Origin: an uncultured delta proteobacterium
GTDB taxonomy: Bacteria; Desulfobacterota; Syntrophia; Syntrophales; UBA2185
Reading direction: 5' to 3'
DNA: 64,000 nt
NCBI GenBank assembly: GCA_963729715.1
Contig: CAVSPA010000007.1
Span: 1-64,000 of the forward strand
A program made the position numbers and the translations under genes. Position 1 is the stretch's first letter; each line of letters starts with the position of its first letter. Below are positions 3,379 through 59,256 of the stretch, in pieces. A model generated the notes under the pieces. That model saw only the letters and a program-made list of their open reading frames with translations, was not told the DNA's origin and made no database searches.

Positions 3379-4662
3379 ATGAACCAACTCTCCATTTTTA
3401 ACTTCCAGAATAGATATCAGCGGGTATTTGCATTTCTTAATCAGTGCATTCCCGTATTGATTTGTATATTCATTTTTTGCAATCCTTTCCCGCATACAAC
3501 TGCAATCACGAATATAAGTTTTTATCTTACAATTTTAATTGTACTGGTTTTAATTGTTTTCAAACGAAATCGATTTATATTCAAAACACCCCTAACATAC
3601 CCCTTGATGCTTTTTTTGTTATGGTCATTTCTAAGTATTTTCTGGGCGCTGAATATAGAAAATAGCCTCCATGATGTATGGGGGCATTTGGTAAATCATA
3701 TCATCCTCTTTTTTTTATTGATCAATTTTTTCAACTCGAGGAAGAGGCTTGCCATACTGTCATGGACGGTTGTAATTTCAGCCGCTGCTTTTTCGTTAGT
3801 GGGAATGTTTTATTACTATGTGATCATTGGTGATTCGATCCATGCAACGAGGTTTGGATTTTTATTGAGCAACTCGGTTAACTGGTCAACGGAACTTCCT
3901 GTAAATTTTATCGGAACAATTACGGTCTTTGCCATCATCTTATGTTTGCACTTATCTTATCAGGAGTTTCGTTTGTATCGCCATGTGGCTATCATCACCT
4001 GCATGATTCCAACATTAATCGCTACGATCTTGACTCAGTGCAGGGGGACTTTTGTTGCTCTGATTATTGCAATAATCATCCAATTATTTATCAAGGCAAA
4101 AAAGATCCTGCTGCTTTTCGTGCTGGCCATAGCAGTAATTCTCATGTGGTTCCCCTCGCAAGATAGAATGATTGCCAACTCTTTCAAGGAACGTCTGAAA
4201 ATCAATTATTTCACCTATGAAGTGATCAAGGATTATCCATTAACGGGAATCGGCTTCGGCATGCAAACATTTGTCAATGATATTGATAAAAATTTGTATA
4301 TGAAAAGACTACCAGAAGAATATAGACCTGCAACAGTTTACACACCCCATAATCTGTTGTTGGACATTGCGGTAAGGCTCGGCGTGATTGGTCTGATATT
4401 ATTTTTATCCATAATTTTCGCCTTCGGAAAAATATGTTGGAAAACCATGAAATATGCAAGAGATGAAGAAATCAAAGGCTATGCGGAGTGCATGGCCATT
4501 TCATTCAGCGCTTACTTCACAATCGGAGTAGCGGAACCTGTTTTTCTGTTTAGTGCCTCGGCAATCGTGTTTTACATCATACTTGCAATCATGACTATTT
4601 TATGGCGCCTCAATAGAAATGAGGATACATCACCATTTTGTTCCGGCCGAAACCTAGCTTGA
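3379..4662 (+). CDS. O-antigen ligase family membrane protein (Wzy_C/WaaL-like)
   Basis: Many TM segments; LTQCRG, YPLTGIGFG, TPHNLLLDIAVRLGVIGL. Confidence 0.85.
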   Translation: MNQLSIFNFQNRYQRVFAFLNQCIPVLICIFIFCNPFPHTTAITNISFYLTILIVLVLIVFKRNRFIFKTPLTYPLMLFLLWSFLSIFWALNIENSLHDVWGHLVNHIILFFLLINFFNSRKRLAILSWTVVISAAAFSLVGMFYYYVIIGDSIHATRFGFLLSNSVNWSTELPVNFIGTITVFAIILCLHLSYQEFRLYRHVAIITCMIPTLIATILTQCRGTFVALIIAIIIQLFIKAKKILLLFVLAIAVILMWFPSQDRMIANSFKERLKINYFTYEVIKDYPLTGIGFGMQTFVNDIDKNLYMKRLPEEYRPATVYTPHNLLLDIAVRLGVIGLILFLSIIFAFGKICWKTMKYARDEEIKGYAECMAISFSAYFTIGVAEPVFLFSASAIVFYIILAIMTILWRLNRNEDTSPFCSGRNLA

Positions 4663-4704
4663 GGTGCTTGTATTTGTGTCAACTGCAAACAAATAAGGAT
4701 TAAA

Positions 4705-5673
4705 ATGGATATTCAAAAAGCCATCAAAACAGCTATTGAGCAGTTCGGTTCTGAAACAGAATCCCTGGAATTCTTGCCTGAAAATCGCTACAATAAAAAT
4801 ATGTTTCCGACGACCGGACAGTATGACTGGTTTTCCGGTCAGATCCTGTACTGCCTGATCCGTTACTTAAAACCCCGGCGCATTCTGGAGGTTTCAACAG
4901 CTTCCGGCTATGCGACCATGTTTATGGCGATGGCTTTGAAACAAAATAAATGGGGTAAGGTTGATACCTTTGAATTGGATGCCAAAGCTGCAAAAGCAGC
5001 AGTCAAACTTTTCAAACAATATGATGTGGATGCCTTTGTCGAATCCTATGTAGGAGATGCGAGGAGAATATCGGCTGCAACACCATCCGATTACAACATC
5101 TATTTTTTAGACAGTCTCCATACGGAAGATTTCGCCCGCTGGTTTATTGACAAGCATATCATGCGTTCGGACCGGATAGACGCCCTCTTCCATATGCACG
5201 ATATCCTGCCGCTGCACGCGCATGTCCGCCGCTGGAATGCTCCACCGTTCGAAAGCGATGAATTTGATGAGAAACCCAAGCAATCAATGTTCGAAAAGAT
5301 TAAAGACAAGATACATCACTTGGTCCAAATACCGCGCCTTCAGGAAGAGCAGCGAGTTCCCATCCGGATCCATCCTCCGGACAAGCCGGGTGTGTTGCAA
5401 ACCTTTGATGGGAATTGTACCACCGAAGCCATTTGGGGGAATAAACTGGCAGCCTTAATGAAGCCGGAAGACAATGTTTTTCTTTACGATATTACCGATG
5501 ATTACCCGCAGATGACACCAAGAAAATATGATCATGCCGCTATCGGCCGTTCTGACAGCAATAATATCCCGATGGAATGGAACGAGTCCTGGTGGTGTAG
5601 TGTAGCTGCCATCAAGGTGGCATACCGTCAATTTAATGAGACGCAACAAGAAGAGAGCAGCGACAATGTCTGA
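4705..5673 (+). CDS. Class I SAM-dependent methyltransferase with C-terminal extension
   Basis: LIRYLKPRRILEVSTASGYAT, TFEL, FLDSLH, HMHD. Confidence 0.75.
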   Translation: MDIQKAIKTAIEQFGSETESLEFLPENRYNKNMFPTTGQYDWFSGQILYCLIRYLKPRRILEVSTASGYATMFMAMALKQNKWGKVDTFELDAKAAKAAVKLFKQYDVDAFVESYVGDARRISAATPSDYNIYFLDSLHTEDFARWFIDKHIMRSDRIDALFHMHDILPLHAHVRRWNAPPFESDEFDEKPKQSMFEKIKDKIHHLVQIPRLQEEQRVPIRIHPPDKPGVLQTFDGNCTTEAIWGNKLAALMKPEDNVFLYDITDDYPQMTPRKYDHAAIGRSDSNNIPMEWNESWWCSVAAIKVAYRQFNETQQEESSDNV

Positions 5674-12746: not shown

Positions 12747-14228
12747 CTATTCTATCTTCCAGGATGTTCCGGTAGGGGTATCCTTGAGAATAATCTTCTT
12801 TTCCGCCAGGAGATGTCTGATCTCATCGGCCCTCTTCCAGTCCCTGGCCAGCCGGGATGCCCGCCGCTCTTCAATCAAACGGTCTATTTCATGCACATCC
12901 AAGCCACGCTTTCCGGCCTCCCTGTCACGATCCTTCATAAAATAATCATCAGGATCGTCGAGGAATAACCCCAAGACACTGCCGACTTCCGCAATGACCA
13001 TTCTCGCCTTATCCAGAACAAGGCGTGCCTCGGCGGATGCGGCAACTTTTTCATCCGTCATATAGCCGTTGACAAGTCTCACCGTATCGAAGATGTATCC
13101 CACCGCCCTCGGCGTGTTGAAATCATCATCCATAGCCTCTTTGAATCTATCCGGAAGCGAAGCAATTTTGTCGAGTATACCTCTATCCTTTCCGGAAAGT
13201 CTGTCCATGGTAACAGCGGAAAAATCTTCACCGGTCTCAAGCGCGTCCTTGACTGCTTTCAGCGTGGCATAAAACCGTTCCATGCCCATCCTCGCCTCGG
13301 CAAGTGACTCGCCCGAAAAGTCAACAGGCCCCTTGTAATGGCTCTGAAGCATAAAAAGTCTCACGACCTCCGGATGGTAATTCTTCAATATATCTTTAAT
13401 GGTGAAAAAATTGCCGAGTGACTTCGACATCTTCTCGCTGCTGACCTTTACAAAGCCGTTATGGATCCAAAATCTGGCGAGCGGTTTGCCGGTCGCCCCT
13501 TCCGACTGGGCAATCTCATTTTCGTGATGGGGAAATATCAAATCCTCTCCGCCGCCATGGATATCGAATGTATCTCCGAGAAACTCCTGGCTCATAATTG
13601 AACACTCGATATGCCACCCCGGTCTCCCCCTGCCCCAGGGACTCTCCCACCATGGCTCCCCTTCTTTGCTCGCTTTCCACAGGGCAAAGTCGAGGGGATA
13701 CCTTTTTTTCTCATTTACATCCACGCGGGCACCGGCCACCATTTCCTCCAGATTTCTGCCCGAAAGTTTCCCGTATCCTTTAAATTTCTCAACCGCATAA
13801 TAGATATCACCGTTGGCTTCATAGGCGAGGTCTTTGGCAAGGAGGATATTGATCAGCTTTATCATACCGGCGATGTGCTCCGTGGCCCTCGGTGCCACTG
13901 TGGGTCTCGCTATCCCGAGCGCATCCATGTCTTCGTCATGCTCTCTGATATACCTCTCCGATATTTCAGATATTGTCTTGCCCTCCGCATTGGCCTTCGT
14001 GATGATTTTATCATCCACGTCCGTAAAGTTCTTCACGTACGTGACATGATATCCCCTATACCGAAGATACCTTGTGATGACATCGAAAACTACTGCCGAA
14101 CGGGCATGGCCTACATGGCAGACATCATAAGCGGTGATGCCGCACACATACATGCTTACCTGTCCTTCAATAAGGGGGTCGAACGTCTCTTTCTTCTTTG
14201 AGAGGGTGTTGTATATTTTTATGGACAT
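12747..14228 (-). CDS. cysS: Cysteine--tRNA ligase (canonical)
   Basis: CGIT, HVGH, GRPGWHIECS, DIHGGGEDLIFPHHENEIAQS, KMSKS; all four Zn ligands intact. Confidence 0.98.
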   Translation of the reverse strand: MSIKIYNTLSKKKETFDPLIEGQVSMYVCGITAYDVCHVGHARSAVVFDVITRYLRYRGYHVTYVKNFTDVDDKIITKANAEGKTISEISERYIREHDEDMDALGIARPTVAPRATEHIAGMIKLINILLAKDLAYEANGDIYYAVEKFKGYGKLSGRNLEEMVAGARVDVNEKKRYPLDFALWKASKEGEPWWESPWGRGRPGWHIECSIMSQEFLGDTFDIHGGGEDLIFPHHENEIAQSEGATGKPLARFWIHNGFVKVSSEKMSKSLGNFFTIKDILKNYHPEVVRLFMLQSHYKGPVDFSGESLAEARMGMERFYATLKAVKDALETGEDFSAVTMDRLSGKDRGILDKIASLPDRFKEAMDDDFNTPRAVGYIFDTVRLVNGYMTDEKVAASAEARLVLDKARMVIAEVGSVLGLFLDDPDDYFMKDRDREAGKRGLDVHEIDRLIEERRASRLARDWKRADEIRHLLAEKKIILKDTPTGTSWKIE

Positions 14229-54438: not shown

Positions 54439-54984
54439 TTAATGTTCTCCAAAGACCTCAGCTGAAAATTTATAAACTTTGGCATCCTTATCTTTCCATG
54501 CATCCCGCTGAAGTCCGGCTTTGTAACAGGTTTCCTGAAGAAATGTCAAGCTATCCCAATTATATTCCGCGGCCACTTGCGGGAGCAGAAGGCCGGAATG
54601 AAACCCCTTAGTAATGTAAAGGCCGTGCATGCCCACTTCTATTTCATCTATGTTCTTAACCTGTTTCAGCGGGCTCATTACGGATATCTCGACGGTGATG
54701 TTCTTCAGTTCGTCCGGCTTTAATGGAGGAAAGCGTCGATCATCGAAGGCAGCGGCCAGAGCCATTTCTCCCACGGTCTTGTAAAGTGGCTTTCTCGCCT
54801 CGATATAGCCTATACAACCCCTGAGCTGACTGTGCTTTTTAAGCGTTACAAATGCTCCCTTCTTTTCATTCAGTACCTCCGAAGATAAATGAAATTCCGG
54901 GAGAGACCCGCCTGTTAGTCTGGCCTCTATTGTTTTTCTTACAACATCAAGAAGCGCCTTTTTGTCCAAGTCTGTCAACTCCAT
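54439..54984 (-). CDS. amrA: AmmeMemoRadiSam system protein A (AMMECR1 domain)
   Basis: GAFVTL, LRGCIG, AAFDDRRF, EISVMSP, GLLLPQVA, CYKAGL. Confidence 0.95.
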   Translation of the reverse strand: MELTDLDKKALLDVVRKTIEARLTGGSLPEFHLSSEVLNEKKGAFVTLKKHSQLRGCIGYIEARKPLYKTVGEMALAAAFDDRRFPPLKPDELKNITVEISVMSPLKQVKNIDEIEVGMHGLYITKGFHSGLLLPQVAAEYNWDSLTFLQETCYKAGLQRDAWKDKDAKVYKFSAEVFGEH

Positions 54985-55191: not shown

Positions 55192-56031
55192 CTAAGAATG
55201 CCGGCCCTTATAAAAGATAGCGGAAGCATAACCAACAACGCTGCTTTTATCTCCCGTTACATCTCCCGAATTGGCGTATTTCAACAATTTCGCCCTATTT
55301 GCACCCAATTTTTCTGAAACCATCATGGTCACGGCTGCCGGCCCTCCGCCGCAGGCCTCGCATAGATCTTTTTCCAAATCTTCGAGGAGACCCCTGCCAT
55401 CCATCTTTTCTATACGCTTGATCACCACCGAATCAAGCTTCACAGCCTGCTCATAAGAGTGGAAATGTGAGAGATCGGTACTTCCCACGATCAAGACATT
55501 CCTGCCATTTATCGCATTCACTATGCTCTCAGCCAGGTTTTCGCATGTTTCGCGGTCTTGCTCCCCCATAATAAGTGGCACAAAGCGAAATTCTCCGAGT
55601 GCCACTTGAAGAAAAGGGAGTTGAATCTCGAGTGAATGTTCCTGGGCATGAGCAGCCGGTATGTGGGATATCATTTCGCTTTGAGACATTATATCGTTTG
55701 CCAAGGTCACATCCACGGAGACAACGCCTAACGGGGTTTCATATCCGCCCCTGTTATATACGGAAACCCCGTGGAAAAATGCCCTATGGCTCGGGCCCAG
55801 AACCAAGACAGCATCAAAGGTTTTTCTGCGTACTATTTTGTAAGCTATTGCGGCAATCTGGCCTGAATAGACATATCCGGCGTGGGGAACAATAAGGCCT
55901 CTGATGCCGCCATCAATCACTACATCAGGCGCGTTGAGAAAAAAGTCCTCTATATCCGCCCGCAAAACCCTGGGGCTGCCAGGATACCAAGTCCCTGCGA
56001 TAACTGACTTTCTGACTTCCTTATCCATCAC
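55192..56031 (-). CDS. amrB: AmmeMemoRadiSam system protein B (MEMO1 family)
   Basis: AGTWYP, VPHAGYVYSG, GPSH, EHSLEIQLPFLQ, STDLSH, CG, YANSGD, VVGY. Confidence 0.95.
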   Translation of the reverse strand: MMDKEVRKSVIAGTWYPGSPRVLRADIEDFFLNAPDVVIDGGIRGLIVPHAGYVYSGQIAAIAYKIVRRKTFDAVLVLGPSHRAFFHGVSVYNRGGYETPLGVVSVDVTLANDIMSQSEMISHIPAAHAQEHSLEIQLPFLQVALGEFRFVPLIMGEQDRETCENLAESIVNAINGRNVLIVGSTDLSHFHSYEQAVKLDSVVIKRIEKMDGRGLLEDLEKDLCEACGGGPAAVTMMVSEKLGANRAKLLKYANSGDVTGDKSSVVGYASAIFYKGRHS

Positions 56032-56122: not shown

Positions 56123-58432
56123 CTATTTTAATCTCCATGTTACTCCGTCTGCTGTGTCGGAGATCTCAATTCCCATCGCAAGAAGCTTCTTCCTGATATC
56201 ATCAGAAGCCTTCCAATCACCGATTCTTCTCGCGCGTGCTCTCTCTTCGAGAAGACGAAGCGCATCATCGCTCAATGTCTCTTCCTCAAAATTCATGACC
56301 CCGAGAACGGCATCAATCCTCTTTAGGACATCGAGTACATTGTCCCTTTCCCTTTTACTCAACTGCCCGAGAGAGAGTGGAATACTGACCTTCCCTATAA
56401 ATTCAAAAAGAGAGGCCATTGTATCGGATATGTTGAAATCATCATCCATGGTATCGGAGAATCTCTGTTTGATATCATAGACAAGTTGATCAGCGTCCGG
56501 GTATCCTTCACCTGGAGTATAACGAATCAGGCGCTGAATAAATCTATCCAACTTCTTGACCGTATTTCTCGCCGTCTCTAAGGCACCGGCGGAAAAATTT
56601 AGAGGCTTACGGTAGTGGGTGCCGAGCAGAAAAAACCTGATTTGTCTGCCTCCATATCCCATTGTCTCGAGATCTTCTATGGTCTTGACGTTGTTTAAAG
56701 AGCGGGACATTTTCTTGCCGTCCACCATGACCAGTTCCGTATTGATCCAGTAGTTGGCCATCCGTTTGCCGGTTGCAGCTCTCCCTATGGCCATGACATT
56801 TTCACAGTGCGGAAAGATGACATCGGCTCCGCTCGCATGAATATCAATATTGTCCGCCAGATATTTAAGTGAAATTGCTGCACACTCAAGGTGCCAGCTG
56901 GGCCTCACGTTCCCCCAGCGGGTCTTGAAGTAAATCCCCCTTTTCAATTCATTTAGGGAAGACCTTTTCAGAAGAGTAAAATCCACGGGGCTGTCTTTTT
57001 CATAGTCATCAGATTCAATCGTCTTGCCGGGTTTCACCTTTTTCAGGTCAATGTTGGACAGACGACCATAATCGTCTATTTTTGATATGTCAAAGTAGAC
57101 GGACCTCAATTTTTCGTAGGCGTGGCCCCTCGCCACGAGTTTTTCAACCAGGTTCACCATGGCATCGACATTTTCGCTAGCCCGGGGATAGACCTTCTCT
57201 TGTTTGATATTCAAATTTTTTATGTCGCTGAGGAACCTGCTTGTGCATCTTTCCGTATACGTAGCCAAGTCCATGCTTGCGCGCTCGGCTTCCTTAATGG
57301 ATCTGTCGTTCAAATCAATTATGTTCATAATGTGTCTAACTTTAAAGCCTTTAAAGTCGAGGTAGCGTAGGATCAGATCGGAAACGACAAAACGCCGATA
57401 GTTGCCTACGTGGGGAACTTCATGGACAGTAGGCCCGCAAGAGTGCATCAGAACTTCTTCGGTATTGATTGGTTTGAAGAACTCCTTCTCTCTCGTCGAC
57501 GTGTTGTAGAGACGTAGGGTAGATTGCTTCTTATCGGCAAAGAGTTCCGTACTCAGATACCTCTCTCCGCCGTCAGGAAAAATCACAACAATGAGCCCAT
57601 CTTCCATTTCTCTTGCCTTCTGCATAGCTACATACATGGCAGCTCCTGAACTCATTCCTACAAAAAGACCTTCCTCCCCGGCCAACCTCCGTGCGGTTTC
57701 AAATGCATCTTCGTCGAGGATATTTATTTTCTCATCCAGCCGGTTCTTGTCATAAATGCCCGGTCGGTAAGATTCCTTCATATTTTTCAGACCCTGGATT
57801 TTGTGCTGCAGGTATGGTTCAACACCCACTATCTTGATATCAGGATTATATTCCTTGAGTCGCCTCGAAATACCCATAGCAGTGCCCGTCGTCCCCAAGG
57901 TTGCCACCACCATTGTCACAGCCCCATCCGTCTGCTGCCATATTTCTTCACCAGTACCGTGATAATGAGCCAGCGTATTATCAGCATTATTAAACTGGTC
58001 GGTGCCAAAATATTTTCCTGGATCCTTGAGCATCATGTTATATGCCACTTCGATGGCGCCATCCGTGCCGAGAATTGCCGGGGTCAAGTATAACTCAGCT
58101 CCCATGGCCTTAAGAATTCTCTTTCTTTCCTCACTGGCGGATTCAGACATAGCCAGGCATAATCTGTATCCCTTGGCGGCAGCAATAAGTGCCAGACCGA
58201 TGCCGGTATTGCCGCTCGTTGCCTCGAGGATAATCTTATCGCCCGACAATTCCCCCCTCTTTTCCGCTTCGTTAACCATATAGAGGGCTATCCTGTCCTT
58301 TACGGAGCCTCCTGGGTTAAAATATTCGAGCTTTGCATATATTCTAACCTTCTTGCTCGGATTAAGCTTACGGATTTCCACGAGGGGCGTATTTCCAATA
58401 CTTTCTATAATGCTCTTATACATTCTTTTCAT
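56123..58432 (-). CDS. Fusion of CysM-type PLP cysteine synthase (aa ~1-298) and a divergent cysteinyl-tRNA synthetase (aa ~304-769)
   Basis: N-terminal IGNTPL, NPGGSVKDR, TSGNTG, QF, GTTGT, SSG, PDGGERYLST. C-terminal LYNT, CGPT, HVGN, WHLEC, FPHCEN, KMSRS, MDDDFN and the anticodon domain. One uninterrupted ORF. Confidence 0.93.
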   Translation of the reverse strand: MKRMYKSIIESIGNTPLVEIRKLNPSKKVRIYAKLEYFNPGGSVKDRIALYMVNEAEKRGELSGDKIILEATSGNTGIGLALIAAAKGYRLCLAMSESASEERKRILKAMGAELYLTPAILGTDGAIEVAYNMMLKDPGKYFGTDQFNNADNTLAHYHGTGEEIWQQTDGAVTMVVATLGTTGTAMGISRRLKEYNPDIKIVGVEPYLQHKIQGLKNMKESYRPGIYDKNRLDEKINILDEDAFETARRLAGEEGLFVGMSSGAAMYVAMQKAREMEDGLIVVIFPDGGERYLSTELFADKKQSTLRLYNTSTREKEFFKPINTEEVLMHSCGPTVHEVPHVGNYRRFVVSDLILRYLDFKGFKVRHIMNIIDLNDRSIKEAERASMDLATYTERCTSRFLSDIKNLNIKQEKVYPRASENVDAMVNLVEKLVARGHAYEKLRSVYFDISKIDDYGRLSNIDLKKVKPGKTIESDDYEKDSPVDFTLLKRSSLNELKRGIYFKTRWGNVRPSWHLECAAISLKYLADNIDIHASGADVIFPHCENVMAIGRAATGKRMANYWINTELVMVDGKKMSRSLNNVKTIEDLETMGYGGRQIRFFLLGTHYRKPLNFSAGALETARNTVKKLDRFIQRLIRYTPGEGYPDADQLVYDIKQRFSDTMDDDFNISDTMASLFEFIGKVSIPLSLGQLSKRERDNVLDVLKRIDAVLGVMNFEEETLSDDALRLLEERARARRIGDWKASDDIRKKLLAMGIEISDTADGVTWRLK

Positions 58433-58671: not shown

Positions 58672-59088
58672 TCAACTGTCAAACTTGGGCACAGGAATTT
58701 TGAGGAATTGGACTCCTTCCTCCCTTAGCGCTTCTTCTTCGTTCTCCGTAGTGATGCCTTTGATATTCCGTCCTTCTTCCTCGCCGTGATGAATCTTCAA
58801 GGCCACTTCAGCAAACTTCTTGCCGACATCTTCGAAATTCTTGTCGAGGTATTCGCGAAACAACCTTAGAGCCTTCGGCATGGATGATTCTTCAGCATCC
58901 TTCCTGTTAGATGTCTTGATATCCTTTCCCATAATGGAAATTGTGGAGGGCACCATTCCTACGGCAGAACTTCCACACGCAGGACAGATTATCAGCTTTT
59001 GCGTCTGCTGTTCTTCAAATGAAGTTCTGTCGTTGAACCAGCCTTCGAATTTATGACCCTTTTCACATCTTAGATCGTATATGATCAT
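58672..59088 (-). CDS. DUF1178 family zinc-ribbon protein
   Basis: MIIYDLRCEKGHKFEGWF, CPACGS, FEDVGKKFAE.A.KIHHGE...IKG...L.EEG. Confidence 0.88.
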   Translation of the reverse strand: MIIYDLRCEKGHKFEGWFNDRTSFEEQQTQKLIICPACGSSAVGMVPSTISIMGKDIKTSNRKDAEESSMPKALRLFREYLDKNFEDVGKKFAEVALKIHHGEEEGRNIKGITTENEEEALREEGVQFLKIPVPKFDS

Positions 59089-59179: not shown

Positions 59180-59256
59180 CGGGATGTGGCCCAGTCCGGT
59201 AGGGCACTGCGTTCGGGACGCAGGAGTCGCGCGTTCAAATCGCGCCATCCCGACCA
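59180..59256 (+). tRNA. tRNA-Pro(CGG)
   Basis: CGGGATG...CATCCCG-A-CCA; anticodon arm CTGCG-TTCGGGA-CGCAG. Confidence 0.97.

Follow-up and report, generated by a model that had tools for sequence, protein, structure and literature searches.

The 64,000-nt stretch of DNA analysed here (the window) is the start of contig C7 of the 3.76-Mb, 19-contig genome of an uncultured Syntrophales bacterium (GCA_963729715.1, contig CAVSPA010000007.1). On its minus strand, one open reading frame (ORF) of 769 aa with an ATG start (56123..58432) codes for a CysM-type pyridoxal phosphate (PLP) cysteine synthase followed in the same frame by a short linker and a full-length paralogue of cysteinyl-tRNA synthetase (CysRS). 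We call this protein the fusion and its C-terminal part the CysRS-like half or module. Pfam recognized the PALP (residues 10-287, 231 bits), tRNA-synt_1e (residues 319-622, 287 bits), DALR_2 (25.4 bits for a cut-off of 22) and CysS_C (32.4 bits) domains (Table 1). Among the NCBIfam models, the fusion scores above the cut-offs of cysKM (TIGR01136, 366 bits; cut-off 344) and of the cysS equivalog (TIGR00435, 389 bits; cut-off 340), slightly below that of cysM (TIGR01138, 380.3 bits; cut-off 394.2) and below that of NF008735 (342 bits; cut-off 413). An earlier note on this DNA had described a complete synthase domain joined to a full-length CysRS paralogue. The Pfam and NCBIfam assignments agree with that description, and the translation agrees with the junction sequence given there (...ERYLSTELFADKKQSTLRLYNT..., that is, ...STELFADKKQSTLRLYNT...).

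An AlphaFold2 model of the fusion (mean pLDDT 90.3, pTM 0.73) has pLDDT values of ~70-78 in the 10-residue blocks spanning the linker and below 50 at residues 467-481. It predicts that both halves fold, and it speaks to their folding only, not to their relative placement. Domain-domain docking between the two halves was scored on alignment A2, which comprises 91 family members picked for diversity and is not a random sample; the score of 0.24, for a mark of 0.32, counts neither way. Since the same single open frame recurs genome after genome, the fusion is neither a chance event nor an assembly join.

Table 1. The fusion gene, its predicted domains and the canonical cysS gene of the window.
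Feature	Coordinates	Strand	Evidence
Whole fusion gene (P0001), 769 aa	56123..58432	-	ORF listing, translation, family cut-offs, AlphaFold2
CysM-type PLP cysteine synthase domain, residues 1-300	57533..58432	-	PALP, TIGR01136
Short linker, ADKKQST	57518..57538	-	Translation
CysRS-like Rossmann and CP domain, residues 305-622	56567..57520	-	tRNA-synt_1e, 1LI5 alignment
DALR_2 helical domain, residues 657-713	56294..56464	-	Pfam PF09190
C-terminal anticodon-binding domain CysS_C, residues 720-767	56132..56275	-	PF23493, 1LI5 alignment
Canonical cysS (P0002), ordinary Cys-tRNA ligase, outside the fusion	12747..14228	-	TIGR00435

The nearest solved chains to the CysM half are those of E. coli CysM (2BHS) and Salmonella CysM (2JC3), at ~269 bits. 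All nine CysM catalytic positions checked, namely the PLP lysine K45, the S73-G74-N75-T76 loop, G180, T181, G183 and S261, are invariant in 91/91 family members. Judging from its sequence, the synthase half looks like an active cysteine synthase of the CysM type. It thus resembles CysM (O-acetylserine sulfhydrylase B) in keeping all the catalytic motifs. In contrast with CysM, the protein bears a C-terminal module of 465 aa and falls just under the cysM equivalog cut-off; by these scores, it is CysM-like, yet not certified as an E. coli-type CysM. For its HKIQGLKNM loop, a 50-residue query gave no PDB match, and the 60 best chains for the CysM domain do not include the O-phosphoserine-specific CysM of M. 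tuberculosis; we claim no likeness of this loop to the M. tuberculosis enzyme.

The CysRS-like half shares 32% identity with the window's canonical CysRS and matches solved CysRS structures with 284-316 bits, 8QHP being the best. We aligned it to E. coli CysRS (1LI5), whose residue numbers are used throughout. The equivalents of C28, W205, H206, C209 and H234 are kept. The changes are HIGH to HVGN, T68 to I, H235 to C, E238 to V and KMSKS to KMSRS. We take C28, C209, H234 and E238 to form the zinc site of the E. coli enzyme, and T68 to contact the amino group of the substrate. The second lysine of KMSKS is catalytic in class I synthetases. As N is the majority state at the fourth HIGH position among the 58 canonical CysRSs compared, HVGN is no defect in itself. 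KMSRS was seen only in sequences that bear the family signature (4/4 among standalone-size representatives). This signature, DFTLLKR..L.ELKRG..FKTRWGNVRPSW, lies in the CP domain, is specific to the family and comes with a 4-aa insert. At the C-terminal end, R735, W740, D744 and R747 of the fusion correspond to E. coli R427, W432, D436 and R439, which are named as the CysRS anticodon-contact residues in the available part of one report (PMC13449415).

All 30 Syntrophales members tabulated have HxG[N/S], I/V at T68, C (once S) at H235, V/I at E238 and KMSRS, and all 30 keep the equivalents of C28, C209, H234 and W205. Apart from the one in HIGH, the residue changes of the Syntrophales CysRS-like half are therefore not random decay. 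Across nine genomes of other genera of the order, identities are 59-69% for the CysRS-like half, 65-70% for the canonical CysRS and 73-80% for the CysM half. Because the first two ranges are similar, selection on the module in Syntrophales is, as far as identities can tell, as strong as that on the essential canonical CysRS. Altogether, the module shares with canonical CysRS (E. coli CysS, 1LI5/1U0B, TIGR00435) the Rossmann, CP, DALR_2 and C-terminal anticodon-binding domains, the five residues from C28 to H234 and the four anticodon contacts. It differs from it by its fusion to a synthase, the replacement of the second KMSKS lysine by arginine, the changes at T68 and E238, the insert and new conserved CP signature and its placement in a separate clade, and in that it accompanies the canonical CysRS rather than replacing it.

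Family-wide, retention and loss are distributed very unevenly over the module. The second KMSKS lysine is K in 0/91 members, R in 34 and a gap in 48, and the KMS loop is wholly lost in 58/91, with the CysRS-like domain still retained. The first histidine of HIGH is kept in 41/91 (absent in 50/91), the C28 equivalent in 55/91 and the C209 equivalent in 56/91. W205 and H234 equivalents are each found in 90/91. As for the anticodon contacts, the R427 position is R in 83 members (K in 5, Q in 3), W432 is aromatic in 91, D436 is D in 91 and R439 is R in 90. Classes among the members are a Desulfovibrionales type, in which the ATP motifs and the zinc site are entirely gone (29/91), proteins with a complete cysteine pocket that are devoid of the KMS loop (16/91), the Syntrophales type (24/91) and near-canonical proteins except for the missing KMSKS lysine (7/91). 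In the most decayed members, the tRNA-synt_1e score falls from 287 to 63-88 bits, CysS_C is still detected by Pfam, and hydrophobic residues occupy the pocket positions expected around the acceptor end.

The sequences thus indicate a loss of catalysis that is clear in most lineages and partial in Syntrophales. With the KMSKS lysine in none of the 91 members and the KMS loop gone in 58, ATP-dependent charging cannot be the common job of the family. Since the catalytic residues have been shed repeatedly, and the anticodon reader and the CP signature never, the common function of the module is most likely to bind tRNA-Cys. In a FastTree tree of 91 rows, all family modules lie on one side of a branch with an SH-like support of 99, which is a local measure. 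The other side holds the canonical CysRSs, an archaeal fusion and a 405-aa third CysRS paralogue of the window genome, both described below. The Desulfovibrionales group sits on a long stem (1.03).

We determined the distribution of the fusion in two genome sets. In the order-level set, the 339 genomes of the window's class, which all belong to one order and represent 24 families, ~279 carry it (best E <=1e-168; counted by hand), 59 have single-domain-level matches only and one has no match. Family f2 (four genomes) and family f6 (five genomes) lack it throughout, and so do most f21 genomes. Of 401 genomes sampled evenly across the phylum, with a completeness of at least 90%, 165 (98/255 genera) code for the full-length one-frame fusion, and families are mostly all-or-none. 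The fusion is therefore not unique to this assembly; uniqueness would, according to the earlier note, have spoken against its proposal. Carriers include Solidesulfovibrio alcoholivorans, Pseudodesulfovibrio, Maridesulfovibrio, Desulfomicrobium, Desulfonatronovibrio, Desulfosudis oleivorans, Desulfatirhabdium, Desulfarculia, Desulfobacca, Thermodesulfobacteriaceae, Smithella and a few metagenome-assembled genomes (MAGs) of Planctomycetota. The best 120 matches in the protein collection, among them those of Syntrophus aciditrophicus and S. gentianae, all have both domains and are named solely 'cysteinyl-tRNA synthetase' or 'cysteine--tRNA ligase', as the earlier note had surmised for related anaerobes. 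The Desulfovibrio ferrophilus copy is named 'cysteine synthase'.

The two halves also occur as separate genes, in a clade of metagenomic relatives. In 13 split loci (L129-L141), the cysM-like gene lies 6-23 nt upstream of the cysRS-like gene; at L130, the stop codon of the former overlaps the ATG of the latter by 4 nt, at the point equivalent to the linker. Thus, the pair stays together even as two genes. An independent CysM-CysRS fusion of 768 aa (P0125) is present in a Nanoarchaeota MAG. HIGN, KMSKS and every zinc ligand are present in its CysRS half, which groups with canonical CysRS in the tree.

Which half of the fusion is replaceable can be read from the genes that accompany it. We analysed ten closed, single-contig carriers from ten other families. 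A separate CysRS is encoded in 10/10 (nine score 429-476 bits and the tenth 319 bits), and a canonical-level CysRS match is found in 163/174 near-complete genomes of the order. The window itself contains a canonical cysS, as the earlier note had stated; its 493-aa product scores 564 bits with TIGR00435 and has intact HVGH, KMSKS, WHIEC and FPHHENE motifs. As a canonical CysRS is present in every closed carrier, free cysteine is charged there in the ordinary way, and the CysRS-like half looks redundant for charging. In contrast, the fusion is the only cysKM-family match (E <=1e-40) in seven of the ten closed carriers, which gives the synthase half the housekeeping role in these seven; the other three have a second cysKM gene.

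The same split is seen for the serine acetyltransferase gene cysE (TIGR01172, E <=1e-15), which is found in 0/7 of the sole-synthase genomes and in 3/3 of those with a separate cysK, where it adjoins that cysK. The earlier note had suggested a check of co-occurrence with cysE. In a cross-tabulation of the phylum sample, compiled by hand, cysE is present in 79/165 fusion carriers as compared with 190/236 non-carriers, 86 genomes having the fusion without cysE and 46 neither. In this the fusion differs again from CysM, and since these 86 carriers lack cysE, O-acetylserine may not be its substrate. The synthase half probably uses O-phosphoserine or serine instead.

Tentatively, and with slightly less than even confidence, we read the fusion by analogy as a CysE-independent cysteine synthase combined with a CysRS-derived sensor of tRNA-Cys or cysteine, which would serve the synthase as HisZ serves HisG; the module would no longer be the cell's Cys-tRNA ligase. 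The CysM half would make cysteine without need of a serine acetyltransferase. The module would bind tRNA-Cys, most likely as its common function, and in the Syntrophales form it would probably bind cysteine as well, through what remains of the zinc site. It would report the status of cysteine, of tRNA-Cys or of both to the synthase, an allosteric link that we propose from the analogy. In the O-acetylserine pathway, feedback falls on CysE. Where CysE is missing, the synthase would be the only committed step, and the fused sensor would supply the feedback. A more specific version, which we regard as possible rather than probable, is that uncharged tRNA-Cys, recognized by the anticodon reader of the module, together with cysteine at the zinc site where one survives, acts as an allosteric on/off switch of the CysE-independent synthase. 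Just as doubtfully, such a switch might be a single-polypeptide bacterial counterpart of the GCN2/HisZ logic, present across much of a phylum of sulfate reducers and syntrophs.

Several observations weigh against a sensor. The genomes compared are interrelated, so the counts above are descriptive and do not represent independent events. Of the 174 near-complete genomes, six have fusion-level CysRS scores only (best E 1e-78 to 1e-86), three have intermediate ones and two none; all 11 are multi-contig assemblies, and a genome with the fusion as its only CysRS is possible. Across 110 loci, no neighbour common to the lineages points to a partner or a pathway. The Syntrophales form keeps HxG[N/S], KMSRS and three zinc ligands and passes the cysS equivalog cut-off, a pattern that would also be expected of a still-active or re-specialized enzyme. 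Some activity may survive the substitution of arginine for the KMSKS lysine. With these motifs and ligands kept under strong selection, the Syntrophales form may yet bind ATP and cysteine, or might even be a slow tRNA-charging enzyme. Finally, next to the fusion, the window genome codes for a separate CysK (cysK, 467 bits) elsewhere and has cysE (EpsC type, 152.5 bits for a cut-off of 150) beside nifS-nifU. The absence of any other point for feedback therefore cannot be argued for the window organism, and the feedback case is weaker for it than for the family as a whole.

The alternative that best survives takes those catalytic remnants at face value. In it, the Syntrophales protein is truly bifunctional: CysM makes cysteine, the CysRS half charges tRNA-Cys (its kinetics may be altered, or it may act in certain conditions) and cysteine is channelled into translation, which would suit a scarce or reactive amino acid. 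The earlier note had likewise raised, as its second option, the channelling of a CysM product to tRNA, which may hold for the Syntrophales lineage. The score above the TIGR00435 cut-off fits this idea, as do the motifs and the C28, C209, H234 and W205 equivalents kept throughout the Syntrophales members, with a normal N at HIGH position 4, the four anticodon contacts and the strong purifying selection. The independent Nanoarchaeota fusion to a fully canonical CysRS adds to these arguments, because its existence means that a physical coupling of both activities can be selected for. However, not one member of the family has the KMSKS lysine, the equivalents of T68 and E238 are replaced by I/V and V/I, respectively, and a canonical CysRS co-occurs nearly everywhere. 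Moreover, sister lineages have lost catalysis and kept the domain, and hence a non-catalytic function exists in the family. On balance, we consider bifunctionality unlikely.

A docking site for tRNA-Cys might also serve other ends, such as aminoacrylate or sulfur chemistry on the tRNA in the course of its modification, or the buffering or sequestration of tRNA-Cys. The anticodon contacts and the basic, highly conserved CP signature, kept in all lineages, are consistent with such roles. They are speculative, though, and we know of no tRNA modification with the chemistry expected of the synthase's aminoacrylate or sulfur on tRNA; we find them improbable.

The earlier note had proposed a class I analogue of SepRS/SepCysS, in which the CysRS-like half would bind tRNA-Cys, or load it with an activated serine, and the residue on the tRNA would be turned into cysteine by the PLP half. 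The resemblance lies in the link between a tRNA-Cys-binding protein and a cysteine-making PLP enzyme. The retention of tRNA-reading residues throughout the family agrees with this proposal, as does the frequent absence of cysE from carriers, since the synthase may then use O-phosphoserine, the substrate of SepRS. Nevertheless, SepRS is a class II enzyme and SepCysS has another PLP fold, and neither was found in the whole window genome (SepRS, TIGR00470, best 26.2 bits for a cut-off of 380.65; SepCysS, TIGR02539, best 31.7 bits for a cut-off of 365.25), with both models above cut-off in two methanogens used as controls. The members devoid of the KMS loop (58/91) or of the first histidine of HIGH (50/91) cannot activate any amino acid, and in the decayed members the pocket is lined by hydrophobic replacements. 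The kept equivalents of C28, C209 and H234 are, we presume, ligands that select a thiol and not serine, which speaks against charging with activated serine. The fusion also coexists with a canonical CysRS, which needs free cysteine, in all ten closed carriers, and as the only cysteine synthase of seven of them it must supply that free cysteine. With the KMSKS lysine absent throughout, the proposal is not supported, and we judge on-tRNA conversion very improbable.

No likelier is an MshC-like role, with the module ligating the new cysteine to an acceptor other than tRNA, such as a carrier protein or a small-molecule amine: the fusion reaches only 184 bits with TIGR03447 for a cut-off of 485, it keeps the anticodon-binding domain and its four contacts, a domain that MshC is not known to have, no acceptor-pathway genes are conserved near the fusion in the 110 loci, and the ATP motifs are lost in most lineages. 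What recommends it is that zinc ligands and remnants of the ATP motifs are kept in Syntrophales and that, according to the available parts of two surveys, MshC is a CysRS paralogue with that chemistry (PMC2922099, PMC9437257).

To return to the sensor reading, its closest parallel is one of working principle and not of family, as there is no sequence relationship with HisZ-HisG. HisZ is inactive for aminoacylation, is a separate subunit not known to have an anticodon-binding domain and senses histidine. In both cases, a paralogue of an aminoacyl-tRNA synthetase is tied to the committed enzyme in the synthesis of the cognate amino acid; for the family described here, the tie is visible as fusion and as overlapping genes. 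In contrast with HisZ, the module retains an anticodon reader, is fused in most cases and, in some of the lineages, has lost the zinc site. In GCN2, a dead, HisRS-like synthetase domain is fused to an effector enzyme and binds uncharged tRNA, and the fusion likewise joins a synthetase-derived domain to an effector. However, GCN2 is eukaryotic, its effector is a kinase and it is not known to be specific to one tRNA, whereas the effector of the fusion would be a biosynthetic enzyme and its reader is predicted to be specific for the GCA anticodon. The window genome has one tRNA-Cys (GCA, U73).

We found no description of the fusion in the open literature, subscription journals and supplements being outside the search, in line with the earlier note, which knew of no characterization. 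In the available part of a 2022 review, including its Table 1, HisZ is listed as a HisRS paralogue in histidine synthesis, and CysRS* and MshC are the only CysRS paralogues given a function (PMC9437257). In the accessible portion of a 2010 survey of synthetase-like proteins, cysteine synthase comes up solely in the neighbourhood of MetRS paralogues (PMC2922099). Mukai 2017 (PMC5424206, PMC5389517) and a 2022 follow-up (PMC8762117), as far as their available text goes, deal with SepRS/SepCysS and with a CysRS* devoid of an anticodon-binding domain, not with the fusion. CysRS* of Desulfobacterales is, like the module, a second CysRS copy in the same phylum; according to the part of the 2017 work at hand, it has no anticodon-binding domain and is encoded behind selC* and selB* (PMC5389517). 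In contrast, the fusion keeps this domain, and no selC*- or selB*-like neighbour was found at the fusion loci.

Closer to CysRS* in shape than the fusion is the third CysRS-like gene of the window genome, which codes for the 405-aa paralogue devoid of an anticodon-binding domain (contig C3:136266-137483, minus strand; locus L209 5267-6484). Its product has HIGN and KMSKS but WNIQD instead of WHIEC, with loss of the C209 zinc ligand, and scores 298 bits with TIGR00435, below the cut-off of 340. The gene is located ~4.4 kb from nifU-nifS-cysE, with genes for a MATE transporter, a response regulator and a glycosyltransferase in between. Within the order, a third strong match to PF01406 is seen sporadically. 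The tRNA repertoire of the window genome includes a 73-nt tRNA-like gene with a GCU anticodon (contig C16:17367-17439; locus L210 1068-1139; RF00005, 54 bits). This gene has A73, its variable arm is short and its anticodon stem contains two U-U mismatches; a normal long-arm tRNA-Ser(GCU) is encoded in the genome as well.

The neighbours of the fusion gene are lineage-specific housekeeping genes: those for PilC, DUF1178 and Memo proteins in Syntrophales, thymidylate kinase, SurE and an HD-OB protein in Desulfobacterales and an MptE-like protein in Desulfovibrionales. In the window, genes for AMMECR1 (54439-54984) and Memo-like (55192-56031) proteins, both on the minus strand, are directly downstream of the fusion; the Memo-like neighbour is kept in 23 of the 31 Syntrophales loci examined and not outside the order. 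Directly upstream is a DUF1178 zinc-ribbon gene (58672-59088, minus strand), kept in 26 Syntrophales loci. The sole tRNA gene beside the fusion, for tRNA-Pro(CGG) (59180-59256, plus strand), lies between the DUF1178 gene and pilC. The distance between the canonical cysS and the fusion, around the rpoBC and ribosomal-protein cluster, stays at 38-44 kb in many Syntrophales genomes (e.g. G191, G171, G172, G176, G331, G337, G011, G014 and G016). Among seven split loci examined, the closest two split relatives, L129 and L130, have a gene that we call ThiF/MoeB-like by eye only (2151-2936 and 4422-5177, respectively), starting no more than ~15 nt after the cysRS-like gene; the other five do not.

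The labels 'cysteine--tRNA ligase' and 'cysteine synthase' carried by hundreds of database proteins hide what the fusion is: often the only cysteine synthase of its organism, in the absence of a serine acetyltransferase, attached to a module that never has the key catalytic lysine. Cultured carriers exist, such as Solidesulfovibrio alcoholivorans and Syntrophus aciditrophicus. If the module does sense tRNA-Cys or cysteine, it would be a second example in nature of the HisZ principle and a new means by which bacteria couple translation and the making of an amino acid. Pathway reconstructions of sulfate reducers and syntrophs would then also be corrected as regards the enzyme that produces cysteine and the serine derivative that it starts from. 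The conservation of this gene hints at an unstudied link between cysteine supply and translation.

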